Shown here piece by piece: positions 26,991 to 63,289 of a DNA stretch of 64,000 nucleotides. Position 1 is the stretch's first letter, and each line of letters starts with the position of its first letter. Both the position numbers and the translations under genes were made by a program. Source of the stretch: an uncultured Candidatus Saccharibacteria bacterium (GTDB taxonomy: Bacteria; Patescibacteriota; Minisyncoccia; Phycocordibacterales; GCA-2401445); assembly GCA_964436015.1 (NCBI GenBank), contig CAYTAR010000002.1, forward strand, positions 9,521 to 73,520. Reading direction: 5' to 3'. The notes under the pieces were generated by a model, which saw only the letters and a list, made by a program, of their open reading frames with translations, had not been told where the DNA came from and did no database searches.

Positions 26991-28175
26991 TTATTGCATA
27001 CCTTTTAAAGCACAATCAAGACCAAGAATAATATCTTTAGGATCTTCAAATCCGACTGACAGGCGAAAAAAACCATCAGTTATTCCCAACGATTCCCGAA
27101 TATCTTTTGGAATACTCCTATGACTCATGAGCGGGGGATAGGCAATTATTGTTTCCGGACTCGCCAAGCTCTCACCGTATACAATGGGGCTGTTTTTTCG
27201 CAATAAGTCAACGAATTTTTTAAGTACACGGTTGTTTTTATTTTTAAGGATGAATGACACAACACCACCATACCCTCCTTTGCTTTGCCTTTGTGCCACA
27301 GCGTGATTTGGATGAAAAGAGAGTCCGGGATAGAGTACTTTTTCTATGTGATTATTTCTTTCTAAAAATGTTGCCACAGTGAGCGCTGTTTCACTTACTC
27401 GCTTCCAGCGTAATTCAAGCGTTTTTACTTCTTGGAGGACACGGTAGCATTCATCAGGTGAGAGGATTGCACCCAGTGTGCGGTGTAAAAAAACGAGTTG
27501 TGCATGAAGCTTTTTATTCCGAGTAATAATCGCTCCTCCAATAATATCGTTGTGACCGGCAATATATTTACTTAAGCTATGAATTACAGTTTCTGCTCCG
27601 AATTCAAACGATTGTAGTGCGCACGGTGGAGAAAATGTTGCATCAACCACGAATGGAATTCCCGTTTCTTTAGATACTTTTGCAACAAGCGATAGGTCAA
27701 TGACATGCAGTGATGGGTTTGTTGGGGTTTCCACAAAAAAATATTTTGTAGAAGGCGTAATGCTGTTATGGATAGATTCTTCAGTGCTGAAATCAACACA
27801 ATCAAAGGTTATCCTGAAGCGCGAAAAGTACTGATCGAGTAAGCGAAATGTTCCGCCATATACTTCTTGGCAACAGAGTACGTGGTCACCTGGTGCGAGT
27901 GTAGAAAAAAAGGCTGTTTCGGCTGCGAGTCCTGATGAGTAGACGGTTGCATTACCTCCTCCTTCCAATTGAACCAGTTTTTCTTCAAGTTTTTGTCGTG
28001 TTGGATTTTTCCCACGAGAATACTGGAATTCACTTTCAATACCAAACTCCTTTTGCGCAAATGTTTTTGTTCGCACCAGTATAGGCGCAACCGCACCAGT
28101 TTCTTTGTCAGGCTTCTCTCCGCTGTGGACTAGTTTTGTTGAAAAGGACCACTCTTTTTTGTATCTATTCTTCAT
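26991..28175 (-). CDS. Cys/Met-metabolism PLP-dependent enzyme (MetB/MetC/MetY family)
   Basis: PLP-lysine motif SLSKYIAGHNDIIGGA. It is preceded by a SAM-I riboswitch, which suggests a methionine-biosynthesis role. Confidence 0.8.
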   Translation of the reverse strand: MKNRYKKEWSFSTKLVHSGEKPDKETGAVAPILVRTKTFAQKEFGIESEFQYSRGKNPTRQKLEEKLVQLEGGGNATVYSSGLAAETAFFSTLAPGDHVLCCQEVYGGTFRLLDQYFSRFRITFDCVDFSTEESIHNSITPSTKYFFVETPTNPSLHVIDLSLVAKVSKETGIPFVVDATFSPPCALQSFEFGAETVIHSLSKYIAGHNDIIGGAIITRNKKLHAQLVFLHRTLGAILSPDECYRVLQEVKTLELRWKRVSETALTVATFLERNNHIEKVLYPGLSFHPNHAVAQRQSKGGYGGVVSFILKNKNNRVLKKFVDLLRKNSPIVYGESLASPETIIAYPPLMSHRSIPKDIRESLGITDGFFRLSVGFEDPKDIILGLDCALKGMQ

Positions 28176-28211: not shown

Positions 28212-28352
28212 AGCTCTTCCGTAAAGAAGAGATTTTAAATCATATAGATATATTATCTTTCCCTTACGGGCTAGATTGAGCACTTACTTCTTACGAAGAG
28301 TTGCTGGCGGTTCATAGAGCTAGTTCTCTCCCCGCACTCTGGATAACTATTT
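28212..28352 (-). promoter_or_regulatory. SAM-I (S-box) riboswitch with terminator expression platform in the 5' leader of the Cys/Met PLP enzyme
   Basis: Minus strand reads TTATCCAGAGTGCGGGGAGAGAACTAGCTCTATGAACCGCCAGCAAC...GTGCTCAATCTAGC...AAAGATAA. Compare the S-box consensus TTATCAAGAGAGGTGGAGGGACTGGCCCGATGAAACCCGGCAACC...GGTGCCAATTCC...AAAGATGAG. Then CTCTTCtttacgGAAGAG + U-run. Confidence 0.7.
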
Positions 28353-48506: not shown

Positions 48507-50447
48507 ATGATAATCGATAGACCAAAACAGCTGAAAACAGTAGAAGATGCTCTCACTATAAATATGAGAAGTTTTTCGGTGTATCGCATATTAAGTAATT
48601 CATTCAGAACAAGTTTTATGTATCGCGGGCTCGGGAGTCTTTTACTACTCTCGGTGTTAGCTCCCTCAGTGATTCCCGTTTTTGTATATGCTGACGAGAT
48701 ACCAGTAGCTACAGTAAGCACTTCAACCAAAGAGTCTATCGTGCAAGTGGACGTAGATCCTGTTGCTAAGGTTGATTCAAAAGCAGAAGAAACCATCGTT
48801 CCTGTAGATGATTCAGATGAAGGGGGTGTTGAGGAAAATGTGTCAGAAGAGAGTGGTGTTGAGATTAATGATTCTAGTATAGAACATGAGGAGATAGAAG
48901 AAGGTGATGTTAAGGAAAGTGTAATAGAGGAAGAAATCCAGCTGATAGAAATTGCAAGCTCAACGTTGTCTGTTGAGGATGTAAGTGCTACTAGTACCCC
49001 CGCAACCTCAACTCCAATAATAATGAATGAGGAGTCTCAAGTTGGTACTACTACAGTTAGTACTTCCACAACAACACTCGTAGCGAGTACAACAAAAAAT
49101 GAAATAGAAATTTCAGAGGATGAGGGAGTGGCAACAAGTTCTAATAAACTTACGGAAGAAGGTAATACTGCGGGCGCGAGCGGAACAAGCTCGCCCATGT
49201 TAACTGTTGATCCGGCAGACCTTATACCTCCTGATATTACTATTGTTGGCAATAACCCGGCGTTTGTGGCTGTTGGTGTGCAGTATGTTGATCAAGGAGT
49301 CCTTGTAAATGACAACAAAAGCAATAACTTGGGCCACACAATTCGTGTAAATGGTATAGAGGTTGATACGGTAACGCTTGATACAAGTACCACCAGTGAA
49401 TACGCAATAACTTATGTGGCGGTAGATCAAGATGGAAATACAGCAGTGGCAGTCCGAACGGTATTTGTTGGTATCGCAGAAAGTAGTATAGGGGAAGGCG
49501 TGTTAATGGAAAATGGTGTTGCGGGAGGAAGGGCTTCTTCAACTACAGATACCGTTGATGTGGTTTTTGAAGAAAACCATGATTTTGTACCCCAACAAAA
49601 TATTGAGTTTAATCTTTTGAATAAACATGTGTTTTCTGAATCTGATTGTGTGGTAGTGGGGAACGGTGAGTTTTACTGCGTAACCTCTGAGGATGCAAGA
49701 ACAAAGACAACAAACAACACTTCTCCAGTAGTGTTTGCAAAAAAATCAGACCAAGGGAATAAAGAAATATATTTCAATAATGGAGAATCACTTGTACAGA
49801 TCACTAACAATGACTTTGATGATGATCGACCCGTGTATGATGCAATTACTGGTATCATTGTGTGGCAATCACTCCGAGGCGATCGTTTGCAAATAGTATC
49901 CTACAATACCGTAACGGGAGTTGAGGTGGAGATTACTAATACTCCATATAACAACAGCAACCCTCATGTGCAGGGAACGACTGTGGTGTGGCAAGGGTGG
50001 GTAAATAATAACTGGGAAATATTTGTTGCTGATGCGACACGGAAAGCAGAAGACACTCTAGAGCCGGTAACGCGTAATGTGTGGAACGATATGTTTCCAC
50101 AGGTAAAGGGAGATATTGTCACCTGGCAGTCACGAGTAAATGATGCATGGAAAGTGTTTATCTATGATATCCGTACGAAAGAAATATCCGAGGTGGCTGT
50201 TCCTGCTGGGGGAAGTATTGAGAATCCCCGATTCGTTATTTTAGTTGAAAACAGACTTACGAATGGTGATGTAGAGACTTATGGGTATGACATTACTACG
50301 AAAGAAACATTTCCACTTGGTGCAGAGCGAAGGGCTACGCAAGAGATTCCAGAAAATCCGGCACAAACGGAGCCAACCGTGCTTCCTGTGGTGCAGGAGG
50401 TTAGAGCTCCGAAAGACGATGAGGGTGGAGTAGATGATACATTATGA
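48507..50447 (+). CDS. secreted surface protein with an acidic region, an Ig-like (DUF5011-type) domain and beta-propeller-like VxWQ repeats (signal peptide probably starts at nt 48618)
   Basis: MYRGLGSLLLLSVLAPSVIPVFVYA signal; DITIVGNNP...YVDQG Ig-like; repeated ...VVWQ...W.IF..D blades. Confidence 0.55.
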   Translation: MIIDRPKQLKTVEDALTINMRSFSVYRILSNSFRTSFMYRGLGSLLLLSVLAPSVIPVFVYADEIPVATVSTSTKESIVQVDVDPVAKVDSKAEETIVPVDDSDEGGVEENVSEESGVEINDSSIEHEEIEEGDVKESVIEEEIQLIEIASSTLSVEDVSATSTPATSTPIIMNEESQVGTTTVSTSTTTLVASTTKNEIEISEDEGVATSSNKLTEEGNTAGASGTSSPMLTVDPADLIPPDITIVGNNPAFVAVGVQYVDQGVLVNDNKSNNLGHTIRVNGIEVDTVTLDTSTTSEYAITYVAVDQDGNTAVAVRTVFVGIAESSIGEGVLMENGVAGGRASSTTDTVDVVFEENHDFVPQQNIEFNLLNKHVFSESDCVVVGNGEFYCVTSEDARTKTTNNTSPVVFAKKSDQGNKEIYFNNGESLVQITNNDFDDDRPVYDAITGIIVWQSLRGDRLQIVSYNTVTGVEVEITNTPYNNSNPHVQGTTVVWQGWVNNNWEIFVADATRKAEDTLEPVTRNVWNDMFPQVKGDIVTWQSRVNDAWKVFIYDIRTKEISEVAVPAGGSIENPRFVILVENRLTNGDVETYGYDITTKETFPLGAERRATQEIPENPAQTEPTVLPVVQEVRAPKDDEGGVDDTL

Positions 50448-53400
50448 CCCTACGCGCATTGAGAAGAATTTGGGTGAATAAAAAAAAATGGGGAGCACGC
50501 ACGGTGGCGGTTTTTATTGTGTTCACTTTTTTGTTTTCTGATATCTCACAGTTTATTCGTATACCATGGGGTACTATTTTCAGAGCTGAAGCTGCACCTG
50601 TTTTGATTGAGGATACACTCACCATAGTAGATGACTCCATGTTGAATACTTCACCCACAACCGTTTTTATCAGTGATACGGTTGGGTATACTTTTTTTGT
50701 AGATAATGGAAATGCGTGTAGGTATGCCTCAACAACAGATGCGGGGGCTACATGGAGTCTGGCATACACCGTTGACTCGGTTAATACGACAGATTGTTTT
50801 CGTGTCGCGGTGTGGTATGACCAATGGACTCCTGGAGATGATACCGGTACGGTGATACATATTGCAACTCTCGATACGGGCGATGATGATATTTTCTATA
50901 CATCACTTAATACCGTAACTAATCAACTTTCCACAACAGTGATCGCGACAAATCAGGCGGGTACATTTGCTGCGGGTACTAACTATCATTCAATTACGAA
51001 AGGTGGTGATGGAAACTTGTACATGGCTGCAAATGATGCATCGGACAGTTGGATAGTTCGGTGTACGGGCACCTGTACGAGTGCGGGTAATTGGTCAGAA
51101 ATTGCTAATCCGTACGAATTACAGAATGATTGGCCACTTCTTGTGCCGCTTTTGAATGGAAACATAATGACCATACGAATGGATTTATCAGGAAATGATT
51201 ATGACTATAACATTTGGAATGGTTCTATATGGAGTGGATGGACAACTATCTTAACAACCGCGGGTGAGAATGCAACTTTTGATGCTCATTTTGGGGCAAC
51301 GATAGATAAGAGAACAGGGGATGTGTACTTTGTTGGGGTAACTGATAATGCGACGTTGGGAACCGATGACGATATTCGTACCGCATACTACAACCACCAT
51401 AACGGTACGTGGAGTGTGATGGGTAATGTGCTTACTAATGATACAAAAGGTATACGAGACGCTAAAATATTTTTTGACCAGAATTCTGGAGATGTGTATG
51501 TTACCTATTCCGCACTCACCACTCCAAATAGTGCGACAACTGGTAATGTGTACTATAAATATTCAACTGACGGTATGGTTTCGTGGAGCAGTGAGGTACA
51601 GGTAAATACCGTCTCAGGCAACTTGTTTGGTGCGGGACACAATAACTTAATGAGTACTGAGCGTGCATATGTTACATGGAAAAACATATCGGGCGATGAT
51701 TTGTTTGGAGAGACTGTAGTTAATCTTTCTCCGCCTGCGCTTGAGCAGTACTCATATCGATGGTACGAATCTGCGACAAGTACTGCTCCAGGTGCACCTC
51801 TTGCAAATGCAAACACGACCGCAACGTCAACAGAGAGGGGTACGCCATTTCGTCTCCGTATCGCTCTCGATATAGACGATTCAAAAATTGCTTCCAGTTC
51901 TCTCTCTTTTAAACTTCAATATGCAGAGCGGAGTGGGATTTGCGATATTTCTTTTACCGGGGAAACGTACACTGATGTTCTTACTTCAAGTGGGGCAGTG
52001 AGATTTTATGATAATACTGGTGTTGCCTCTGGGGTACAAGCGACGGTGTCTGCGAACGAACCTATTCCGAGTGAAGGTTCTTTTTCTTACCAGTCATATA
52101 TTGAAGGTGGGACATTTACTAATACGTATGGAAGTATCGCAACGAGTAGCGACGGCCTATGGGATTTTTCTTTAATCGATATTTCTTCACCTGAAGAAAC
52201 CCGGTACTGCTTCAGAGTGGTGTATGCGGACGGTAGCACGCTTGAATCATACTCTGTAATTCCTGAACTTATTACCCCATCGCGTCCACCAATTGTTACT
52301 CAGGCGCATTTTCATTTCAGAAATGATAACGGAGGAGAGGATGATGCAACGTCAGCTACAGGAGGGGTTGAGGATACAAATCTTTTTGGTGTATTTCCAA
52401 CCACCACAATACGTATGCGTATTGGAGTTGAAAATAGAGGGTTAAGCACATCAAGTCCAATTCAGTATCGTCTTGAGTACGCGGAAAAAGGCGCGAGTTG
52501 TGAAGTAAGTACAGGCTGGACTGATGTTGGAAGTTCTGGAGGAGCTTTCAATATGAATCCAATTGCAAACTTAACAGAGGGAGGAGATACTACAGATATT
52601 GCGATTGCGTTAGGAGGTGTGAGTACTAATGAATCTTATTTCGTAAGTCCAAACGGTGGTGTTCGAGATACAAATTCACAGACCAGTGCCATAACGCTTG
52701 GTCCTGATGAGTATACTGACCTTGAGTATTCAATTACCGCGACAGGTGACTCAAATGAGGGAACAACATACTGTTTTAGGATAACCGATGCAGGGTCGGT
52801 GATTGATAGTTATAGTGTGTATCCACAGATAACTATGGCTGCTTCAGTAGAAGTATCAACTATCGGTAGTCAGGTGACATCAGTCAATGCAGGAACTAAT
52901 AATTTTTATGTGGGTGGAGCTTTTGTGATAACTGATGGAATAGGAGGGCATTCTGTTACGAGTATTACCATTGCCGAACAGGGAACCGTAGATGCTGGAA
53001 GTAATATAGAAAACATACGCTTATACTACGATCTTGATACGACATTTCCATATGATTGTAGTAGTGAGTCATATGGGGGAGGTGAGTTGCAGTATGGCGC
53101 CACAAGTACCAGTTTTTCCTCCGCAGATGGGACCGCAACTTTTAATGGGTCAGTAGGCATCGATACTGATCAGTCATTATGTTTGTATGTAGTGCTTGAT
53201 ATTGCGAGTGGAGCGAGTGACGGCGAGACTCTTGAAATAGAAATTCCAAATGCAAGTACTGATGTTGTGGTAAGTGATAATCCATCAATTTCACCAACTA
53301 CCTTTGTTCGTTTAGCGGATACAACAACCATAAATAGCTCTGTATTAGATATGACTCATTTCCATTTTAGAAATAATGACGGAGGGGAGGGTGATGCAAC

Positions 53401-56400
53401 GTCAGCTACAGGAGGAGTTGAGGATACGCCGGTGACTGATTTGAGAAAAAACACACCAATACGTCTAAGGTTGCAGGTCGCTAATAGCGGAGGAGTGGGG
53501 GCATCTTCCTTGGCACTTCGTCTTGAGTATGGGGTGAAGGTGAGTTCGTGTAGCGCGGTTTCTGTATGGCAAGATGTCGGTGCCACTGAGGGGGATTGGG
53601 ACATGTATGATTCAACATTTCTTACTGATGGAGACAATACTACGGATATCGTACTTGGTATTGGTGGGGTGAGTAATGAGGGGGTAGATTTTCTTGATGT
53701 GAATGGTGGGGTAAAGGATACTTCCTCTCAAACTGCTCCATTTACGTTGGCTCCAAATGAGTATGTAGAACTTGAGTATTCAGTGTTCGCAACTGCTAGT
53801 TCAACAGCAGAGGGTGAATACTGTTTTCGGGTAACGAACCAAGGCACTCCACTTAATGTGTATTCAGTGTATGCAGAAGTAAGTATTGCTCCAAATCAAG
53901 ATTTTTTCATACAACGCGGTTTTGAGATTGTGAGTGGTACCAGTACTATTTTATACGCGGGAATAGATTACACTCCGCCACGGTTGGGTGGTCGTGCGTT
54001 TGTACGTATCACTAATACGCATCACACAGGCGCAGGGGACGATGATGGGGGAGGAACTCAGAATGCTGATGATGTAACCGCGTACATACTGAATCCTCAG
54101 GATATCGCTACCAGTATTACCATTGCGCGACCAGCGGCAGCGACAATAAATACTGGAGTAGCGTGGGAAATAGTTGAGTATCAAGGCTACCCAGGTGGAG
54201 GTAATGAAATGGTCGTACGCGAACAGGGAAATATATCCATGACAGGTTTATTTGCTACCACATCACCAATAAGTGGGGTGAGTAGCGACAGTGATGTAGT
54301 CGTGTTTATTACTGGAGCAATGACTCCTGATACTGGTACCGCTGATTACAATATGATGCAGGCAGTATCATCGTGGGATGTTCAAAGTCAGAGTGCGGTG
54401 TTTGAGCGAGGTGAGTCAGGAGACACTATCACTCTCAGTTATGCGGTGGTTGAATTTACTGGAAGACATTGGCGTGTGCAACGAGTTGCGCATAATTACT
54501 CGTCTGCTGTTGGCGCAGAGACGGAGACAATACCCTCTTCACTTAACAGTGTTTCTCGTGCATTTTTGCATACTCAGAAACTTGCTGGTGTGGGTGAGCA
54601 GGGCCTGGACGAATTTGGGCATACGGTTTGGATTTCTGGGGTTAATGAAATTTCATTTCAATTACAAAGCGGTGTAACCACACCAACCGCACACCGCTCG
54701 GTTGCATGGGTGATTGAGAATACGCAAGTTAATGGAACTCCAATGAATGTAATACAGTCAAGCGGTACTCAAAGTGGAGGAGCGGAGCCCAGCGTTGCAT
54801 CAATTGATATTGGCACTACGGTGGTTAGTATGGATACAACTTCTGTATTTACTAATTCTCGAGTGAATGGCACAAATACTGCATTCCCAAGACCGATACT
54901 CGCCGTGTATTTAATTTCCCGTACACAGTATCAATTTTGGATTAGTGATACAGGTGGGACGGTAACCTATCAAACTGAGGTGGTTGAGTGGCCAACTGCG
55001 CCAAGAAAGATAACCCAAAACTATTACCGAATATACGTGAATCAAGACACACTACTTCCGTCTGATGTGTGGCCGCAAGGAGCATCATCAATCGGGGAAA
55101 ATACAGTACTTTCACTCAATGATGTGCCTATTGATAGTGGAGATGTTATTCGTATACGTATGTCGGTGTTGGTTGAACAGGGGAATTTACCGGTGAACTA
55201 TCAATCATTTCGTTTGCAGTTTGGTGAACGCGAAACAACATGTTCCGCGGTAAGTGTGTGGCGCGATGTAGGACAAGTGGGAAGCACAACTGCATTATGG
55301 CGCGGATACAATAACGGCAGCGTCACAGATGGGGCAACGCTCTCAAGCGATCCTCCAAATGGAGGAGATTTGGTACTATCAGTTTCTGATAGAGCTGGTA
55401 CGTATGAGGAGTCAAATAATTCCGCGGTGAATCCATTTCCGGTATTCGCGGGAGAAGATGTTGAGTATGATTGGGTTGTTGAAAATAATGGAGCTTTGGA
55501 ATTGACACCGTACTGTTTCCGTATGGTTGAAGCAAATGGTTTGATGCTTGATGACTACGCTTACCACCCAACAGTATTTACCGCTGGGTATGAGGCGGTG
55601 AGCGAAGACTGGCGTTGGTTTGATGATGCTGAAAATGAGACTCCTCTATCAGCTCTTTCTCCAGAAAATTCTGCACCTATTGGAGTAGACTATGATACTA
55701 CCGTACAGTTGAGAGTGTTACTACATGAAATTGCAGGAAAAACTGGACCTCAATTAAAACTCCGTCTTCAGTTTGATGAGTCGGCAAGTTTTACCAATCC
55801 GCAGTTCGTCTCGAATGCGCTTGATTGTGCAGAAGGACTATCTCTCTGGTGTTATGCAGACGGTGGAGGAGTTGATAATGCAACCATAACGACCGCAGTT
55901 TTGACCAATGCAGATTCGTGCGTATCTGAAGTTGGTGATGGATGCGGAACGCACAATGAGCTTGCTACAACGAGTAGTTTATTTACTCATCAACCCAATG
56001 CAAACACAGAGTTTGCGTTTACCATTCGACATGTAGGAGCGCGTGCGAATACAGTCTATTTCTTCAGGATATATGATGTAACCAATGATAGATATGTGAG
56101 TGCAAGCACTACAAAAACGTACCCAAGCTTAGTTACTGAGGGCGCTGGACTTACGTTTACATTAAGTGGTGTTTCTTCGGGTGTAATAACTGAAGGTATC
56201 ACCACTGATAATGCAACAACTCCATACCATATTTCATTTGGCACGCTTCCTTTAAATACGGAGGTTGAAGTGGCGCAACGCCTCACCGTCACCACTAACG
56301 CAACCGAAGGATACCAAGTATTTATGTTTGCAAGGCAAGGATTGTTGTATGATACGGAAGAAATTACTCCAATTACTTCACTTAACTCAAACCCTTTGGG

Positions 56401-56665
56401 GTGGTCTCTTGGGTGCGATACTGGTTCTGTAACTGGTTGTTTCGGATATCATACAGGAGACGATACTCTTGCAGGTGGGTCGGTTAGATTTTCAGCAGAC
56501 GATACGTACGCTCGTTTGACTACGTCACCCCAGGAGATTATTTACAGCTCGCGTCCGGTTATAAACGAATCAACTGACGTGATCTTTAAAACGTGGGTAA
56601 ATGCAGATCAGCCTGGAGGGCTTTATGAGAGTAGTGTGGTGTATATTATTGTCCCTGTATTTTAA
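50444..56665 (+). CDS. giant (2073 aa) Thr/Ser/Gly-rich cell-surface repeat protein
   Basis: N-terminal TM/signal, then at least four ~350-aa repeats each containing C...YCFR(V/I/M) and HFHFRN(D/N)(N/D)GGE(D/G)DATSATGGVEDT. Confidence 0.7.
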   Translation: MTLRALRRIWVNKKKWGARTVAVFIVFTFLFSDISQFIRIPWGTIFRAEAAPVLIEDTLTIVDDSMLNTSPTTVFISDTVGYTFFVDNGNACRYASTTDAGATWSLAYTVDSVNTTDCFRVAVWYDQWTPGDDTGTVIHIATLDTGDDDIFYTSLNTVTNQLSTTVIATNQAGTFAAGTNYHSITKGGDGNLYMAANDASDSWIVRCTGTCTSAGNWSEIANPYELQNDWPLLVPLLNGNIMTIRMDLSGNDYDYNIWNGSIWSGWTTILTTAGENATFDAHFGATIDKRTGDVYFVGVTDNATLGTDDDIRTAYYNHHNGTWSVMGNVLTNDTKGIRDAKIFFDQNSGDVYVTYSALTTPNSATTGNVYYKYSTDGMVSWSSEVQVNTVSGNLFGAGHNNLMSTERAYVTWKNISGDDLFGETVVNLSPPALEQYSYRWYESATSTAPGAPLANANTTATSTERGTPFRLRIALDIDDSKIASSSLSFKLQYAERSGICDISFTGETYTDVLTSSGAVRFYDNTGVASGVQATVSANEPIPSEGSFSYQSYIEGGTFTNTYGSIATSSDGLWDFSLIDISSPEETRYCFRVVYADGSTLESYSVIPELITPSRPPIVTQAHFHFRNDNGGEDDATSATGGVEDTNLFGVFPTTTIRMRIGVENRGLSTSSPIQYRLEYAEKGASCEVSTGWTDVGSSGGAFNMNPIANLTEGGDTTDIAIALGGVSTNESYFVSPNGGVRDTNSQTSAITLGPDEYTDLEYSITATGDSNEGTTYCFRITDAGSVIDSYSVYPQITMAASVEVSTIGSQVTSVNAGTNNFYVGGAFVITDGIGGHSVTSITIAEQGTVDAGSNIENIRLYYDLDTTFPYDCSSESYGGGELQYGATSTSFSSADGTATFNGSVGIDTDQSLCLYVVLDIASGASDGETLEIEIPNASTDVVVSDNPSISPTTFVRLADTTTINSSVLDMTHFHFRNNDGGEGDATSATGGVEDTPVTDLRKNTPIRLRLQVANSGGVGASSLALRLEYGVKVSSCSAVSVWQDVGATEGDWDMYDSTFLTDGDNTTDIVLGIGGVSNEGVDFLDVNGGVKDTSSQTAPFTLAPNEYVELEYSVFATASSTAEGEYCFRVTNQGTPLNVYSVYAEVSIAPNQDFFIQRGFEIVSGTSTILYAGIDYTPPRLGGRAFVRITNTHHTGAGDDDGGGTQNADDVTAYILNPQDIATSITIARPAAATINTGVAWEIVEYQGYPGGGNEMVVREQGNISMTGLFATTSPISGVSSDSDVVVFITGAMTPDTGTADYNMMQAVSSWDVQSQSAVFERGESGDTITLSYAVVEFTGRHWRVQRVAHNYSSAVGAETETIPSSLNSVSRAFLHTQKLAGVGEQGLDEFGHTVWISGVNEISFQLQSGVTTPTAHRSVAWVIENTQVNGTPMNVIQSSGTQSGGAEPSVASIDIGTTVVSMDTTSVFTNSRVNGTNTAFPRPILAVYLISRTQYQFWISDTGGTVTYQTEVVEWPTAPRKITQNYYRIYVNQDTLLPSDVWPQGASSIGENTVLSLNDVPIDSGDVIRIRMSVLVEQGNLPVNYQSFRLQFGERETTCSAVSVWRDVGQVGSTTALWRGYNNGSVTDGATLSSDPPNGGDLVLSVSDRAGTYEESNNSAVNPFPVFAGEDVEYDWVVENNGALELTPYCFRMVEANGLMLDDYAYHPTVFTAGYEAVSEDWRWFDDAENETPLSALSPENSAPIGVDYDTTVQLRVLLHEIAGKTGPQLKLRLQFDESASFTNPQFVSNALDCAEGLSLWCYADGGGVDNATITTAVLTNADSCVSEVGDGCGTHNELATTSSLFTHQPNANTEFAFTIRHVGARANTVYFFRIYDVTNDRYVSASTTKTYPSLVTEGAGLTFTLSGVSSGVITEGITTDNATTPYHISFGTLPLNTEVEVAQRLTVTTNATEGYQVFMFARQGLLYDTEEITPITSLNSNPLGWSLGCDTGSVTGCFGYHTGDDTLAGGSVRFSADDTYARLTTSPQEIIYSSRPVINESTDVIFKTWVNADQPGGLYESSVVYIIVPVF

Positions 56666-56673
56666 TACTATAT

Positions 56674-57690
56674 ATGTCTATTTGGTATACTAGAGGTATG
56701 AGATTATTTGTTCTAGGATTCATATGTTTTGTGAGTGCATTTTTTATTACGCCAGAAATTGCATTTGCAAAGTACATACAAGTATCACCTATTGTAATAA
56801 ATAAAGATTTGCAAGCTCGTGATATTATCCGTGAACAAGTGGTACTGAAGAACACCTCTCCTGCAAAGTTAAATGTGTATACATTTGTTAACAATGTTAC
56901 TTCTGGAACGGAGGGGGGTATTGAGGCATTTCTTGATTATCAACAATCAGAAAAACAAAAGTCGTTGGCAAACTGGATTGAGATTTCACGCGGAGTGATT
57001 GAATTGATGCCAGGAGAAGAAAAAGAAATTGAATTTATTATTAAAGTGCACCATGAGGCTACTCCAGGCGATTATCATGCATTGATTTCTTTCGGAACTG
57101 GAACCAATAGAGATGAGGCTGAACAGCGCCTTACACGAGAGTCATCGGTGATGGTTGTTGGGTCAGTAGTGAAAAATACAAGAGAGCTCCTTCAGGTGAA
57201 AAAATTTACCGCGGGGAATTTATTTTTTTCAGGAACTGATGCGGAGTTCACATACACCCTTCAGAATAATGGTGATGAGGTAATTATCCCTGATGGAGAA
57301 ATCTTGCTTTATGATAGGCGTGGAATTGAGATTGGTGCAATGCGCGTTAACGGACAGGGAGAGAGTATCTTGCCAGGGGAAGAAAAGGAGTTTGTTTCAA
57401 CATGGAGCGGTGAATATAGTCTCGGTCGGCACAAGGCGTACTTGAGTGCAGTGTATGGTGCACAGAAGAAAAACTTGACTGATACCACCTACTTTTTTAT
57501 GTTGCCATGGAAGCAGTTATTACTGTTGTTTACTGTACTTATGTTCTTTACGGTGTATGTTATGCATGTGATTCACGATAAATTTTTTCAAAAGAGAAAA
57601 AAACAGGTTCAATTCAACCGTGTATCTCGTCCAGTAACGCCTCCGGTCCCAGGGGTTGGTGTGATTAATCTCAAACAATATGAGGATTAA
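56674..57690 (+). CDS. cell-surface protein with signal peptide and C-terminal TM anchor (DUF916/DUF3324-like architecture), paralog 1
   Basis: Signal MRLFVLGFICFVSAFFITPEIAFA, a beta-rich ectodomain, and C-terminal TM LLLLFTVLMFFTVYVMHVI + KR tail. Confidence 0.55.
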   Translation: MSIWYTRGMRLFVLGFICFVSAFFITPEIAFAKYIQVSPIVINKDLQARDIIREQVVLKNTSPAKLNVYTFVNNVTSGTEGGIEAFLDYQQSEKQKSLANWIEISRGVIELMPGEEKEIEFIIKVHHEATPGDYHALISFGTGTNRDEAEQRLTRESSVMVVGSVVKNTRELLQVKKFTAGNLFFSGTDAEFTYTLQNNGDEVIIPDGEILLYDRRGIEIGAMRVNGQGESILPGEEKEFVSTWSGEYSLGRHKAYLSAVYGAQKKNLTDTTYFFMLPWKQLLLLFTVLMFFTVYVMHVIHDKFFQKRKKQVQFNRVSRPVTPPVPGVGVINLKQYED

Positions 57691-59365
57691 GTCGGCACAC
57701 AACAGTTGGTTTATAAGGGTAGGAATTGTATTAGTTTTAGTGTGTAGTATTGGATTTTTTTCTTCTTACACGCACGCCCAGGCACCCGCGTCGCTCTCAT
57801 TAAGTGTCACCCCTCCTTTGTTCCAACTCACTACTGCTCCAGGAGAGTATTGGGCGAGCAGTATAAAAGTCATCAATGCCAATTCATATCCATTAACCAT
57901 TGTTGCTGAAGTGGTTAGGTTTGATGCGAGTGGGGAAAGTGGTAATGCTAAATTTTTACCTGTACTTGGCACAGAAGGTGAAGGTAGCACACTTGCGGAT
58001 TGGATTACTCTAGAAGAAATTGAGTTAACTATTCCACCTGAGCAAAGTGCGGTAGTTCCATTTTCAGTACGTATACCACAGGACGCTCCTCCAGGAGGGC
58101 ACTATGCGGCGATACTCATTGGGAATAAATCTGTAAAAGAAGCGGGAGCAGGTCCGCAAGTCGGAGTGTCATCTTTTGTCTCCTCTTTGTTATTTGTTCG
58201 TATTGCGGGTGATGTTGTTGAAACAGGTTCTATTAGAGAATTTTCAGCAGATTCTCTTTTTTATCAAAAGCCAGAAACTTCTTTTTCATTACGGTTTGAA
58301 AATACAGGGAATGTTCACTTGTTGCCACAAGGTGAAATCACCATTTACAACATGTGGGGAAAGGAGAGAGGAGTAATTCCGATAAATCAAAAAACAGATT
58401 TTGGAAACGTACTTCCTCGGTCCATACGAAAATTTGATTTTACTTGGGCGGGGGAGCAAAATCCTCTTGAAGTAGGAAGGTTTTCAGCTGTAGCGATTCT
58501 TACCTATGGGCAGGAGGAAAGAAAAAGTGTGTATGCAAATACGTACTTTTGGGTGATACCCGTGATACCGGTGCTGATTGTCCTCGCTTCAATTTTTGGA
58601 ATTATTGTTTTTGTATCATGGATGGTTAAGTTGTATATCAGACGCGCTCTTGAGCTCCGAGGTATATACATGAATCCTGATGATTTTTTGTCTCCACATA
58701 TGAACACGTCAAAGGTGGATATGAAGATGCTGGTAAACCCTGTTGTGGAAGGAGTTATGGATTTACGTTCAGCTACTTTTCGTGATTCTCTTAGACATAA
58801 GAAAGATATTGTAGAGCCTGCCTCTATGACATATAAAGATTTCTTTAAGAAGTACAAGCGTTTCTTTGTGAGTGTGGCAGGACTCACAATGGTTGTGTTT
58901 ATTTTTATGTTTTTCTTTACTCACGTTCTCGTTCCCGAGCGTGCATTTGATATTACCTTGAATAAGGAAGATGGTGAGGTATCTATTAGTTCGGAGGAGC
59001 TCATTAAGGATAAGCTAGATGAGCAGAATAATTATTTTAATTCAAGTCAAGAAGAGGTTTCTTCTAATATTGCTTCTGGCGAGGTTCAAAGGATTACTAT
59101 TGAATTATTAAATAACACGGGAATTCCAGGCAGGGGTGCTGAGATTGCAGTACTACTTGAACAGAATGGATACAGGATTCAGAAGGTCGGTAATAGTAAT
59201 GAAGAAATGGAAGAAAATCGGGTGTACGGTAATTTTACTGATCCACTTATTGTAGAAGTCATTCAAGATGTTGAAAATATTACCGATAAAGTTTTTACGC
59301 AGATTGATTCAGGGTACACTCAAGGTCAAGCAACAAACACTCTTGTTTTTATTATTTCAAAGTAG
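57680..59365 (+). CDS. cell-surface protein, paralog 2 (ectodomain + TM + extra C-terminal domain)
   Basis: Paralogous to 56674 and 62210: LFVRIAGDVVETGSIREFSAD vs SMKIGGDVIETARIREFSSD. Has an internal TM VIPVIPVLIVLASIFGIIVFV. Confidence 0.55.
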   Translation: MRIKSAHNSWFIRVGIVLVLVCSIGFFSSYTHAQAPASLSLSVTPPLFQLTTAPGEYWASSIKVINANSYPLTIVAEVVRFDASGESGNAKFLPVLGTEGEGSTLADWITLEEIELTIPPEQSAVVPFSVRIPQDAPPGGHYAAILIGNKSVKEAGAGPQVGVSSFVSSLLFVRIAGDVVETGSIREFSADSLFYQKPETSFSLRFENTGNVHLLPQGEITIYNMWGKERGVIPINQKTDFGNVLPRSIRKFDFTWAGEQNPLEVGRFSAVAILTYGQEERKSVYANTYFWVIPVIPVLIVLASIFGIIVFVSWMVKLYIRRALELRGIYMNPDDFLSPHMNTSKVDMKMLVNPVVEGVMDLRSATFRDSLRHKKDIVEPASMTYKDFFKKYKRFFVSVAGLTMVVFIFMFFFTHVLVPERAFDITLNKEDGEVSISSEELIKDKLDEQNNYFNSSQEEVSSNIASGEVQRITIELLNNTGIPGRGAEIAVLLEQNGYRIQKVGNSNEEMEENRVYGNFTDPLIVEVIQDVENITDKVFTQIDSGYTQGQATNTLVFIISK

Positions 59366-59564: not shown

Positions 59565-60704
59565 ATGAATAGCACATACGTATTTGAGCACATCAAGACC
59601 CATAAGTATCTAGCACTCATTGTGTTAGCGGGACTCTTAATGTGGTCAGTCGGCTTGCCTGCGTGGGCACCCATGGCGCAAGCAGCAGCACTCACCAACT
59701 TCAGTGATACACTCACTGATTCGGACGTGAGTGCACCATCTAATCACACGATTGCCTATACGACACCAAACGGTGTCTCGGCAGGAGAGACGATTGTGAT
59801 TACGTTTCCTGCAGGGTTTAACTTAAGTGATTTGTCGTTTAACGACATTGACTTATATGCAGGATCGGAACGAACACTTGGGTCTTCACCTTCAGGTGCA
59901 ACGTGGGGGGTTGCGACAACGTCAACCACTATTACGTTCACTTCAGGAACAGACACTATTGCGTCAAGTACTGCAGTCGTGATTGAGATAGGTACACATG
60001 CAACAGCTGGTGCAACGGGGGATACACAGATTATTAATCCAGGGTCACCTGGCACGCAAATTATCAACGTGTCATCGGGATCAGGAATTGATTCTGCGGA
60101 TACCCGCGTCTACATCATTGATGATGTTGTGGTCACTGCTTCAGTTAACACCACCTTCCTCTTCTCCATCACTGGAGTAGCGAGTGGTGCATCAGTTAAC
60201 GGAAGTCCAACAACCACTGCAGATACAACCACATCAACATCGCTTCCGTTCGGAACACTTAACGCGCTTCAGTCAAAAACTCTTGCGCAAGATCTTTCAG
60301 TAACCACTAACGCAGCAAACGGCTTCGTAGTAACAGTACAGCAAGATCAAAATCTTCGTTCCGCAACGAATGCAGATATTGATGGGTTCATTGATGGGGC
60401 GTATACAAACACTCCAGCTGCATGGGTACAACCATCAGGGTCCCTTGGACAAGAGTGGACATACGGTCACTGGGGTTTAACATCAGAAGATGCTGATTTA
60501 AACACTGATGAATTCGGATCCGATTTGTGGGTTGCAGCGTCAACTACACCTCGGCAAGTCTTCTCACACAATGCACCGTCAAATGGTACAACACCAAACA
60601 GTGGTTCTACCCGAGTCGGTTTCCAGATTGAAATTACTTCACTTCAGGAAGCTGGTACGGACTACACGAACACACTGACGTACATTGCAACGCCGACGTT
60701 CTAG
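59565..60704 (+). CDS. secreted surface protein, WxL-like C-terminal domain, paralog A
   Basis: Signal peptide. The C-terminal 201 aa are identical to those of the next gene. The end LTYIATPTF recalls the terminal motif of WxL domains. Confidence 0.55.
   Translation: MNSTYVFEHIKTHKYLALIVLAGLLMWSVGLPAWAPMAQAAALTNFSDTLTDSDVSAPSNHTIAYTTPNGVSAGETIVITFPAGFNLSDLSFNDIDLYAGSERTLGSSPSGATWGVATTSTTITFTSGTDTIASSTAVVIEIGTHATAGATGDTQIINPGSPGTQIINVSSGSGIDSADTRVYIIDDVVVTASVNTTFLFSITGVASGASVNGSPTTTADTTTSTSLPFGTLNALQSKTLAQDLSVTTNAANGFVVTVQQDQNLRSATNADIDGFIDGAYTNTPAAWVQPSGSLGQEWTYGHWGLTSEDADLNTDEFGSDLWVAASTTPRQVFSHNAPSNGTTPNSGSTRVGFQIEITSLQEAGTDYTNTLTYIATPTF
60101..60704 (+). repeat. 604-bp block identical to 61491-62094 (3' halves of adjacent paralogous surface-protein genes)
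   Basis: Spot checks at the start (tacccgcgtctacatcattgatgatgttgtgg), at 60121/61511 and at the end (...cgccgacgttctag) give a constant offset of 1390; no mismatch was seen, but not every base was compared. Confidence 0.9.
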
Positions 60705-60942
60705 ACGTACTTAGAGCACGCAAAAATCCGCTGTAAAGCGGATTTTTGTTTGTCTGAGACAGTGTGTCCTTGAAGTTAAGGTTGTCTTTTATGTTCGTTA
60801 TCCACAACCAGAAAAGAATTTTTGATAAAAGTCAATTATACTGTACATATTACTGGCGTGTGTCTTTTACACATAAGGTGAGTGGTTGTGAGACTGAGGG
60901 TCATCAGTAGCACATAGATTATCAAGTATATAGTTTATTAGT

Positions 60943-62094
60943 ATGAGTACATATTTTATTTTACACCATATGCGAGGAGGCAAGGCGGTAGGAGCAGTGC
61001 TCCTAATCGCGCTTCTTGCGTGGTCAGTCGGTGCGCCGGCATGGATGAATGTTGCACAAGCAGCAGCACTCACCAACTTCAGTGATACACTCACTGATTC
61101 TGATGTGGGGGCGTTAAGTAACCACACAATTGCGTTCACTACTCCAAATGGGGTTGATGCAGGACAGACTATTACTGTTACCTTCCCAGGAGGTTTTGGT
61201 CTTGGGTCTATAACTGAGGATGATGTTGACATTGATAGTGCAGGAACTCCGCTCACTACTGCAGCGGATTGTTCGGGAAGTGAGGAGGCTGGGGTTGGTA
61301 TTTCAGGACAAATTATTACGATTGATATTTGCTCCGGAGATGGAGGGGACATTGCGTCTTCTACTGCGGTGGTAATTAGAATTGGAACGAATGCGGTTGA
61401 TAGTGGAACAGGAACAAACCAAATTACAAACCACGCAACTCCAGGTACATATATTATTGCAGTTGGAGGGACAATGCAGGATTCAGGTTCTACCCGCGTC
61501 TACATCATTGATGATGTTGTGGTCACTGCTTCAGTTAACACCACCTTCCTCTTCTCCATCACTGGAGTAGCGAGTGGTGCATCAGTTAACGGAAGTCCAA
61601 CAACCACTGCAGATACAACCACATCAACATCGCTTCCGTTCGGAACACTTAACGCGCTTCAGTCAAAAACTCTTGCGCAAGATCTTTCAGTAACCACTAA
61701 CGCAGCAAACGGCTTCGTAGTAACAGTACAGCAAGATCAAAATCTTCGTTCCGCAACGAATGCAGATATTGATGGGTTCATTGATGGGGCGTATACAAAC
61801 ACTCCAGCTGCATGGGTACAACCATCAGGGTCCCTTGGACAAGAGTGGACATACGGTCACTGGGGTTTAACATCAGAAGATGCTGATTTAAACACTGATG
61901 AATTCGGATCCGATTTGTGGGTTGCAGCGTCAACTACACCTCGGCAAGTCTTCTCACACAATGCACCGTCAAATGGTACAACACCAAACAGTGGTTCTAC
62001 CCGAGTCGGTTTCCAGATTGAAATTACTTCACTTCAGGAAGCTGGTACGGACTACACGAACACACTGACGTACATTGCAACGCCGACGTTCTAG
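60943..62094 (+). CDS. secreted surface protein, paralog B (3' 604 bp identical to 60101-60704)
   Basis: N-terminal ~90 aa conserved, middle divergent, 61491-62094 nt-identical to paralog A. Confidence 0.55.
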   Translation: MSTYFILHHMRGGKAVGAVLLIALLAWSVGAPAWMNVAQAAALTNFSDTLTDSDVGALSNHTIAFTTPNGVDAGQTITVTFPGGFGLGSITEDDVDIDSAGTPLTTAADCSGSEEAGVGISGQIITIDICSGDGGDIASSTAVVIRIGTNAVDSGTGTNQITNHATPGTYIIAVGGTMQDSGSTRVYIIDDVVVTASVNTTFLFSITGVASGASVNGSPTTTADTTTSTSLPFGTLNALQSKTLAQDLSVTTNAANGFVVTVQQDQNLRSATNADIDGFIDGAYTNTPAAWVQPSGSLGQEWTYGHWGLTSEDADLNTDEFGSDLWVAASTTPRQVFSHNAPSNGTTPNSGSTRVGFQIEITSLQEAGTDYTNTLTYIATPTF

Positions 62095-62121
62095 TGCGCT
62101 TATATACAAAACTATATACAA

Positions 62122-62155
62122 GAATTACACCCGCGAATGCGGGTGTAATTCTTTT
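62122..62155 (+). terminator. terminator after surface paralog B
   Basis: GAATTACACCCGCgaatGCGGGTGTAATTCTTTTG. Confidence 0.75.
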
Positions 62156-62209: not shown

Positions 62210-63289
62210 ATGACATTTATACTACGAAACGATCGCACACTATTCAATATACTATTATTTTTTGTACTGAGTATTATTGGGCTTGCTTGCTTGCCCACTT
62301 CAGTGTTTGGGCAGTCAAGCTCAGGTATTAGAGTGCAGCCTTCGTTTATTGAAGAGGCGGTTAATCCGGGGGATACGTACAGTGAAATACTTCAGATAAA
62401 AAATGAGAGTGATGTTGAGGAAACATACTATGTAAGTGTGAGGAATATAAAAGGATTAACTGGTAATGATAATGCTCCAGTGTTTGCAGATGAAGGTGAA
62501 GTCACTGGGCTTGAAGTTGCTTCATGGGTTACTCTTTCAGCAGACAGTGCGACCGTTCTGCCTGGTGAAACCGCACAGATTCCTTTTAGTGTTGTGGTAC
62601 CGAAAGATGCGTCTCCGGGGAGTCATATAGGAGGAATATTTGTGACACGGACCCCTCCACGACTACGTGAGACTGGAGCAGGAGTGGGTATTCAAGTAGT
62701 CAGTATTCTTAGTATGAAAATAGGGGGAGATGTAATTGAAACTGCGCGTATCAGAGAGTTTTCTTCTGATAAAAACATATACAGTACCCCGAAAGCAGAA
62801 TTTACCGTAAGTGTAGAAAATGAGGGAAATATTCTGATTAGACCACAAGGGTTTATAGAAATAACTAATATGTTTGGCGAGCGGGTTGCTCAGCTTAAGA
62901 TTAATGAACGAGCAGGTGCGGTGTTACCAAAAGCGGAACGTAGATTTTCAGTGGAGTGGGAGGGGGATAGTCTCTCTTTTGGAAGATATCAAGTACATGC
63001 AGGTCTGGTGTTTGGAGATTATGGAAGACAGAATATTGAAAGTAATTTATTTATCTGGGTTCTTCCTATGAAAATTATCACGCCTTTTCTTGGCGGACTG
63101 CTTTTCCTTGTGTTTGTAATTTATATCAGTATTCGGATACATGTCAGAAATAAGTTACGTACTGTAGAGAGAACTCATGCACGATTTGTTCATGATGAGG
63201 CGCCGTTGTCAAAATTGACTTTCATTGCTGTCGCAGTACTTGCGTTTACAATTCTTTTCCTGCTAGGAGTGTTTATCTTTTTCGCATAA
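62210..63289 (+). CDS. cell-surface protein, paralog 3 (start trimmed to the MTFILRNDRT signal peptide)
   Basis: Same family as 56674 and 57680. Two C-terminal TM helices. An upstream terminator at 62122-62155 argues against the longer ORF-track start. Confidence 0.5.
   Translation: MTFILRNDRTLFNILLFFVLSIIGLACLPTSVFGQSSSGIRVQPSFIEEAVNPGDTYSEILQIKNESDVEETYYVSVRNIKGLTGNDNAPVFADEGEVTGLEVASWVTLSADSATVLPGETAQIPFSVVVPKDASPGSHIGGIFVTRTPPRLRETGAGVGIQVVSILSMKIGGDVIETARIREFSSDKNIYSTPKAEFTVSVENEGNILIRPQGFIEITNMFGERVAQLKINERAGAVLPKAERRFSVEWEGDSLSFGRYQVHAGLVFGDYGRQNIESNLFIWVLPMKIITPFLGGLLFLVFVIYISIRIHVRNKLRTVERTHARFVHDEAPLSKLTFIAVAVLAFTILFLLGVFIFFA

Follow-up and report, generated by a model that had tools for sequence, protein, structure and literature searches.

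The closest described counterpart of the locus analyzed here, a tandem pair of genes (A and B) for predicted surface proteins in an ultrasmall bacterium of class Paceibacteria, is the Pam pilus of the candidate phyla radiation (CPR), described in 2026 from cryo-electron microscopy (cryo-EM) of filaments of Ca. Mycosynbacter amalyticus (Troman et al. 2026, bioRxiv 10.64898/2026.03.03.709456). The pair lies in a 64,000-nucleotide (nt) stretch of contig CAYTAR010000002.1 (GenBank assembly GCA_964436015.1), which was analyzed as a whole and is referred to as the window, and its interest stems from CPR bacteria (Patescibacteria) being thought to live attached to host cells by means that are largely obscure. 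The Pam pilins PamA and PamB are organized with a nine-strand beta-sandwich N-terminal domain (NTD), a single linker strand, and a truncated immunoglobulin (Ig)-like C-terminal domain (CTD), which takes up the linker strand of the neighboring subunit by donor-strand exchange; conservation is greatest in the linker and in the site that binds it, and both pilins occur within single filaments (10.64898/2026.03.03.709456). The operon also codes for PapD/FimC-like chaperones with a C-terminal transmembrane (TM) helix (PamC and PamD) and for an RbmA-like anchor, PamR, and Pam homologues are reported mainly from the Saccharimonadia and Microgenomatia; the paper makes no mention of Paceibacteria, WxL, or gene conversion (10.64898/2026.03.03.709456).

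A second point of reference is the WxL/WxLIP (Csc) gene clusters of Firmicutes, in which a beta-hairpin of the WxLIP protein is predicted to enter the WxL domain (Hassan et al. 2023, PMC10599100). The chaperone-usher pili (Pap/Fim, CFA/I, and Csu) are a third, with subunits joined by donor-strand complementation. As for the evolution of such genes, partial gene conversion is a familiar part of concerted evolution, both in bacterial tuf and rrn copies and in fimbrial or opacity-protein gene families.

We propose, with a probability of roughly 0.6, that A and B are an old tandem pair of Pam-pilin-like subunits, in which the linker and CTD are homogenized by gene conversion while the NTDs diverge. 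The Pam pilus is already published, and partial conversion between tandem surface-protein genes is already well known, the conversion here being ordinary molecular evolution. What is new is a very large Pam-like family in the Paceibacteria that scores below the family threshold, the WxLIP-like nature of the accessory proteins of the locus, and a conversion tract that falls on the predicted assembly module.

Genes A and B are identical in their 3' halves

Gene A (59565 to 60704, forward strand; 379 amino acids [aa]) and its paralogue gene B (60943 to 62094, forward strand; 383 aa) share a maximal exact match at an offset of 1390, with positions 60101 to 60704 and 61491 to 62094 identical at 604 of 604 nt and with no mismatches. 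Both edges of this block are abrupt. Five of the six positions preceding it differ (60095 and 60097 to 60100, with 60096 matching), and on the other side positions 60705 to 60710 mismatch throughout and the sequences beyond are unrelated between the copies. Its first nt is the third position of codon 179 in gene A, and it runs through the TAG stop codon of both open reading frames (ORFs), thereby covering the last part of the final NTD strand, the linker, the whole CTD, and the stop codon. A 604-nt exact repeat cannot be due to chance, and no third copy or fragment, either of the block or of either N-terminal part, was found in the 64-kb window by blastn or tblastn.

Upstream of the block, the two genes are 47 to 74% identical in nt per 30-codon window, and the B NTD is 56% identical in aa to that of A; from aa 184 onward, B is the same as A. 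Identity is only 47% over the signal peptide (codons 1 to 30), reaches its best value of 74% over codons 31 to 60, which correspond to the start of the mature protein and its conserved motif AQAAALTNFSDTLTDSDV, and then falls to 62% (codons 61 to 90) and to 47 to 51% in the middle part (codons 91 to 180), which is the least similar. An initial annotation of this DNA had described two adjacent paralogous genes for surface proteins whose C-terminal domain is conserved and whose exposed segment diverges, sharing an exact 604-bp block that runs up to the stop codon and is followed by divergence, and all of this is borne out, as is the strong divergence of the middle ~80 codons, for which both quoted peptides are present in the translations. 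Its further statement that the N-terminal ~90 codons are similar is roughly right, codons 31 to 90 being more alike than the first 30.

Comparison with a sister genome supports gene conversion

The nearest genome, GCA_040879725.1, is of a different species and was assembled independently, and it contains a corresponding tandem pair (A2 and B2, locus L001) in the same gene order as in the window, with genes coding for a 2073-aa giant protein, a 330-aa protein, a 569-aa protein with a LytR_C domain, A2, B2, and proteins of 382 and 132 aa. When these four genes are aligned by codon, the nt identity between A2 and B2 rises from ~52% to 92 to 100% at the same alignment column where the identity of A and B begins, whereas the C-terminal half is only 64 to 84% identical between the genomes. 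Nei-Gojobori synonymous divergence (dS) in this half is accordingly structured by genome, at 0 for A and B, 0.19 for A2 and B2, and ~1.3 for between-genome pairs. Neighbor-joining trees of 24 family members (100 bootstraps), built separately for the NTD and for the linker plus CTD, are incongruent. The NTD tree groups B with B2 (bootstrap 100) and A with A2 (43) and never A with B (0), whereas the tree of the linker plus CTD groups A with B (100) and A2 with B2 (100). The signal peptides likewise pair between genomes, with A and A2 84% identical in nt and A and B 47%.

These comparisons strongly support recent intrachromosomal gene conversion as the process that made the 3' 604 nt of A and B identical, in agreement with the cause suggested in the initial annotation; uniform divergence along the genes in a related strain, which that annotation named as a refuting observation, is not seen in L001, where identity steps at the same codon. 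The tandem pair is older than the species split, because B and B2 have orthologous NTDs, A and A2 have similar signal peptides, and gene order is conserved, and the 3' half has been homogenized independently in each lineage, with the NTDs behaving as separate orthologous lineages that conversion has spared. The copies in L001 are not identical. A2 and B2 have 41 differences in 600 nt, which are clustered, such that the copies are locally 80 to 100% identical, and the longest exact run of 155 nt was reached by none of 20,000 permutations of mismatch placement; homogenization there is apparently repeated or less recent.

Predicted architecture and relation to Pam pilins

Protein A has a Sec-type signal (helix at aa 4 to 28, AQA/A), which in the AlphaFold2 (AF2) model (pLDDT 89.3) is followed by exactly nine strands at aa 44 to 184, forming a predicted beta-sandwich NTD. 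A conserved linker (~aa 185 to 220) comes next, of which the segment at aa 185 to 197 (IDDVVVTASVNTT) is modeled without a strand partner, and the CTD is all-beta, with strands at aa 198 to 377 and a C-terminal end of ...LTYIATPTF. Within the family, conservation is higher in the CTD (0.54 to 0.93) than in the NTD (0.49 to 0.72), being highest in the linker and CTD and peaking at the C-terminal LTYIATPTF. The B NTD contains a pair of cysteines (...DCSGSEE...IDICSG..., aa ~109 to 131, window positions 61260 to 61330) that is also present in B2 of L001 and in none of the A-type NTDs, and which may form a disulfide, as reported for PamA and PamB.

Neither A nor B has a Pfam match, and the family profile retrieved nothing relevant from the PDB sequences. 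The sole NCBIfam match of both proteins is a weak one to NF058581 (CPR_Pam_pilin_C, 'Pam pilus system pilin subunit'), with 18.8 bits for A and 20.4 bits for B. The same model is matched by 29 of 52 close relatives (best E value, 9e-6) and by 30 of 37 divergent relatives (best E value, 1.5e-10, 41 bits), with alignments that mostly run end to end (2 to 148 of 148) and lie at the extreme C terminus. These matches indicate distant, sub-threshold homology of the CTD to that of Pam pilins, outside the curated family membership. The C-terminal 'anchor' of the initial annotation is thus a conserved domain, as stated there, although the distant homology makes a pilin polymerization module more likely than a wall anchor.

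The locus resembles the Pam system in its CPR host, Sec signal, predicted nine-strand NTD, conserved linker, and C-terminal beta domain that aligns end to end, at sub-threshold scores, with the Pam profile, as well as in having two pilin paralogues in one operon, together with proteins that combine two Ig domains with a C-terminal TM helix and are similar in predicted fold to fimbrial chaperones and RbmA, and a further subunit that carries the CTD. It differs in its host class, here Paceibacteria, in the presence of a 2073-aa CTD-bearing protein and of three chaperone-like paralogues, and in the relationship of the two pilins, since PamA and PamB share little identity over their whole length, whereas A and B have been made identical in the linker and CTD by probable conversion. 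Pam filaments were seen by cryo-EM, whereas A and B are known from genes and predicted models. The conserved Pam neighborhood includes ATP synthase genes; among the window ORFs that were scanned, which are some of the total, none encodes an ATP synthase subunit.

Each of the two genes is followed directly by a terminator-like hairpin, at 60720 to 60749 for A (forward strand, with a U-rich tail; minimum free energy [MFE] of -27.4 kcal/mol, z = -6.9) and at 62120 to 62153 for B (forward strand, with UUUU; MFE of -27.3 kcal/mol, z = -6.7). The hairpin after A is unique to A, that after B being unrelated to it in sequence, and both were revealed by RNA folding and missed by a consensus terminator scan. 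They suggest that A and B each end a transcription unit or precede an attenuator.

Flanking genes and other strand-complementation systems

Upstream of A, and transcribed in the same direction, are genes for a giant secreted protein (50444 to 56665, forward strand; 2073 aa, as in L001), a 338-aa protein (56674 to 57690, forward strand), and a 561-aa protein (57680 to 59365, forward strand). No Pfam domain was found in the giant protein, but its last ~170 aa (~56066 to 56662), with the end ...VVYIIVPVF, are homologous to the pilin CTD (tblastn E value, 4e-6; hhalign probability of 96% and E value of 3.7e-9), and the protein is a candidate adhesin subunit of this system. The CTD is thus a module common to several proteins of the locus, as expected of an assembly domain.

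In the AF2 model of the 338-aa protein (pLDDT 88.9), a signal helix precedes two beta-sandwich domains, and the C-terminal TM helix spans aa 279 to 314. Foldseek matches it to Vibrio cholerae RbmA (E value, 4e-12), to Enterococcus faecium WxLIP (9i25_C and 9i1y, E value of 1e-10 and TM scores of 0.3 to 0.4), solved both by itself and in complex with a long WxL protein, and to the fimbrial chaperones CfaA, CsuC, and YadV. The 561-aa protein is its paralogue (hhalign probability, 99.7%) with a C-terminal extension containing LytR_C (PF13399; E value, 1.2e-5). A third two-Ig-domain and TM paralogue (62210 to 63289, forward strand), 25 to 32% identical to the other two by BLASTP, is located downstream of B. 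Its ORF as called mechanically starts at a TTG at 62075, inside the identical block of gene B, but the true start is probably the ATG at 62210 (MTFILRN...), which follows the hairpin at 62120 to 62153, with the first 45 codons left untranslated; the L001 orthologue likewise starts after B2. All three paralogues have weak matches to PF06030 (WxLIP_PGBD; E values of 7e-4 to 0.03, below the gathering score), and none matches DUF3324. On these predicted folds they are candidate pilus chaperones or anchors, similar to PamC, PamD, or PamR and to WxLIP.

The arrangement is also like that of WxL/WxLIP clusters, in that small and very large secreted proteins with a common C-terminal domain are encoded beside proteins with a signal, two IgG-like domains, and a TM helix (PMC10599100), and the neighbors themselves are WxLIP-like in fold (Foldseek E values of ~1e-10) and in their weak PF06030 matches. 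Unlike WxL proteins, A and B have no WxL domain or motif pair by Pfam, their CTD matches the Pam profile, and the host is a CPR bacterium and not a Firmicute. The likeness to chaperone-usher pili lies in the neighbor fold, which resembles CfaA, CsuC, and YadV, in donor-strand complementation, here proposed by analogy with Pam, and in the hairpins directly 3' of the presumed major-subunit genes; in papA-type chaperone-usher genes, a hairpin directly follows the major-subunit gene. Unlike in those systems, the chaperone-like proteins are predicted to be membrane anchored and the subunits have two domains. No Pfam or NCBIfam match to an usher family was found among the locus proteins scanned, in which no search was aimed at ushers, and CPR bacteria are not expected to possess an outer membrane of the Gram-negative kind.

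Distribution of the family and of tandem pairs

The pilin family is large, with more than 1700 relatives found in Paceibacteria and no family name, and an exhaustive profile search (E value of <=0.001) gave 2,522 clusters at 50% identity. Of the matches in the representative library the best 150 were listed, and the relation of the remainder to bona fide Pam pilins was approached instead through the NCBIfam scans of divergent members, which came from the exhaustive search. The named sources are nearly all metagenome-assembled genomes (MAGs) of Paceibacterota, Parcubacteria, Kaiserbacteria, Nomurabacteria, or Patescibacteria, the exceptions by label being many third-party annotation (TPA) bins named 'Saccharibacteria' and one MAG (L081) of Candidatus Azotimanducaceae. 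The family is thus confined nearly entirely to CPR MAGs.

We extracted 84 full-length copies from 80 further loci. Genomes with two copies mostly have them at separate loci, ~35 to 40 kb apart on one contig, and without concerted evolution, as in CAYOAM (L011/L017), CAZKFF (L018/L031), JACKGE (L030/L054), CAYGJY (L053/L070), and JAYSUD (L062/L078). The CTDs of separated copies are 0.52 to 0.66 identical in aa within a genome and mostly 0.7 to 0.9 identical to foreign orthologues, so that they are old paralogues; JACKGE is a possible exception, at 0.79 within the genome and 0.69 to foreign copies. The identity step was found in the window and in L001 and nowhere else, the only other adjacent pair (L065) being more evenly similar, and the contigs of the relatives P0006 and P0007 contain no tandem pair. 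Because the step is absent from separated copies, homogenization appears to be tied to the tandem arrangement. In neighbor-joining trees (without node support), the NTDs of A and B fall into separate clades; we considered that the tandem pair is the counterpart of the two separate pilin loci found elsewhere, which fits these clades, and we make no claim of it.

The domains also occur in other combinations. In many of the loci L003 to L080, as well as in L001 (15841 to 17692), an ORF of 600 to 650 aa located 2 to 6 kb downstream matches the NTD part of the pilin profile only. P0202 (3077 aa) contains ~10 tandem NTD-like domains, and several proteins of 570 to 1022 aa end in a full pilin module (the proteins cited here being P0202, P0291, and P0308). 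From these arrangements, the NTD and CTD each appear to behave as mobile modules.

Assembly model and competing explanations

In the reading that we prefer, A and B would be secreted two-domain all-beta subunits assembled by strand complementation, the three flanking membrane-anchored two-Ig-domain proteins would be the assembly machinery, and the identical half would be the polymerization and chaperone-recognition module. Because their linker and CTD are identical, A and B would show the same surface to the machinery and to each other, with a related one on the giant protein, and could therefore be built into the same or equivalent filaments. One machinery could thus build filaments that carry two kinds of outer domain, perhaps together in a single filament, as with PamA and PamB. 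The tract boundary is probably set by NTDs too diverged for homologous exchange, and homogenized NTDs may be selected against. If this is true, two surface-distinct subunits that are interchangeable in assembly would be a concrete prediction, and a step in paralogue identity at the NTD/linker junction would be a signature of the module boundary in uncharacterized pilins.

Several points weigh against this reading. All of the NF058581 scores, at 19 to 41 bits, are under the curated cutoff of 55 bits, and fold searches with the A model return generic Ig-like surface proteins only (YweA, sortase pilins, MSCRAMMs, and a TasA-like protein), the PDB copies searched having held no Pam structure as a reference. 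Donor-strand insertion, filament formation, and chaperone binding by A and B are argued by analogy with Pam, as is the donor-strand segment itself. The orthology of the A and A2 NTDs is weak outside the signal peptide, with a bootstrap of 43 and a nonsynonymous divergence (dN) of 0.44 that is close to that between A and B (0.43). The contig is metagenome assembled, and a 604-nt repeat is longer than short-read k-mers, so that graph resolution could make the copies identical. Finally, the confinement of conversion to the CTD can be explained neutrally, by its dependence on homology.

The last of these points leads to an account in which there is only homology-limited concerted evolution, with conversion acting wherever identity survives, purifying selection on the CTD preserving that identity, and the block having no further function. 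We give it substantial weight against selection for compatibility, while regarding it as less probable than the preferred reading as a whole. It fits the greater conservation of the CTD throughout the family and the restriction of clear concerted evolution to tandem pairs, with none in paralogues ~35 kb apart or on other contigs, a pattern in keeping with proximity and homology. It fits less well with a tract boundary that is the same in two lineages with dS of >1 and that lies within ~5 residues of the NTD/linker junction; a shared boundary is also expected from selection on an assembly module, and the neutral and selective readings are compatible and not mutually exclusive. The locus is like other cases of concerted evolution of tandem surface paralogues in its segment-specific tree incongruence, sharp tract edge, and independent homogenization in sister lineages, and is unlike the usual ones in that the tract coincides with a structural module, the linker plus CTD. 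A recent tandem duplication of the whole gene, after which one NTD was replaced or diverged very fast, would also leave an identical 3' half, and the A NTD, being about as far from A2 as from B, is indeed fast-evolving or replaced, but this history is the least probable of those considered. Orthology of the B and B2 NTDs is clear, A is far closer to A2 than to B in its signal peptide, gene order is conserved, and the grouping of the CTDs by genome in a pair that predates the split would require two independent and identical events.

That the identity or the second copy is unreal, arising from a repeat that was collapsed and traversed twice or from a spurious duplication in assembly, is very improbable despite the length of the repeat, because the flanks of both copies are unique and coding consistent and the L001 pair has the same neighbors and is not identical. 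As the independent sister assembly has the same pattern with non-identical copies, the two copies and the homogenization of the CTD are biological; only the last percent or so of identity is doubtful, where the assembler may have erased a few differences. The initial annotation had instead favored cassette-like exchange, with the 3' block as a recombination anchor for a variable segment and antigenic or adhesive variation as the outcome. Two expressed-looking genes with divergent exposed segments beside a perfect homology block are what such a model calls for, and blocks of this kind could in principle mediate deletion, duplication, and chimera formation, but here we consider it highly unlikely, as the part exchanged is the conserved linker and CTD and not the variable segment. 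There are no silent or partial copies in the 64 kb, where blastn and tblastn matched A, B, and, more distantly, the CTD of the giant protein and nothing else, and both genes are full length, each having a signal peptide and a terminator of its own. Across genomes the variable NTDs are stable orthologues with vertical inheritance (as for B and B2), and a one-sided homology block cannot swap an internal cassette, upstream similarity being only 47 to 74%. The NTD dN/dS, which the initial annotation had singled out for the middle segment, is 0.08 to 0.32 (<0.33 throughout and well below 1) on saturated dS (1.7 to >3), values with which episodic positive selection remains compatible. Unlike pilE/pilS-type antigenic variation, the variable domain is spared rather than shuffled.

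A non-filamentous surface complex of the WxL/WxLIP (Csc) type, with the CTD proteins (two small and one giant) held at the wall by WxLIP-like beta-strand insertion and without polymerization, is a stronger competitor, if still an unlikely one. The layout of the locus parallels that of WxL clusters, in which small and large proteins sharing a C-terminal domain are encoded beside DUF916-DUF3324-TM proteins (PMC10599100), and both the PF06030 matches of all three neighbors and the Foldseek match to solved WxLIP structures (9i25_C and 9i1y, E values of ~1e-10) point in this direction. Against it, Pfam detected no WxL domain in A or B (E value of <=1) or in 37 divergent relatives, the top fold matches listed include no WxL chain, and the Pam pilin CTD is the one family that the CTD matches significantly. 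The two sets of resemblances could be reconciled in a wider and more speculative scheme, which we regard as doubtful at present. The Paceibacteria would hold a very large branch of Pam pili (~2,500 clusters at 50% identity) with WxLIP-like assembly proteins, uniting the Pam pili of the CPR, the WxL/WxLIP system of Firmicutes, and the chaperones of chaperone-usher pili as one ancient strand-complementation family for monoderm-type envelopes, and conversion would maintain the donor-strand and acceptor module of co-assembling pilins, such that one set of chaperones serves different outer domains.

Other features of the window

Two tRNA predictions by ARAGORN differ from the Rfam results. A 'tRNA-Pyl (cta)' at 57968 to 58043 (reverse strand) lies inside the coding region of the 561-aa protein, has no corresponding Rfam tRNA, and is probably a false positive, and a tRNA-Leu(gag) at 38484 to 38566 is absent from the Rfam gathering list. 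At 32200 to 34437 is a gene for PilM, a type IV pilus assembly protein (Pfam E value, 1.6e-35), followed by two small ORFs that are possible PilN and PilO genes; if this reading is right, the genome would encode a type IV pilus besides the Pam-like system. A SAM riboswitch (Rfam RF00162, 64 bits) is located at 28250 to 28349 (reverse strand), upstream of a gene for a Cys/Met-metabolism PLP enzyme (26991 to 28175, reverse strand).

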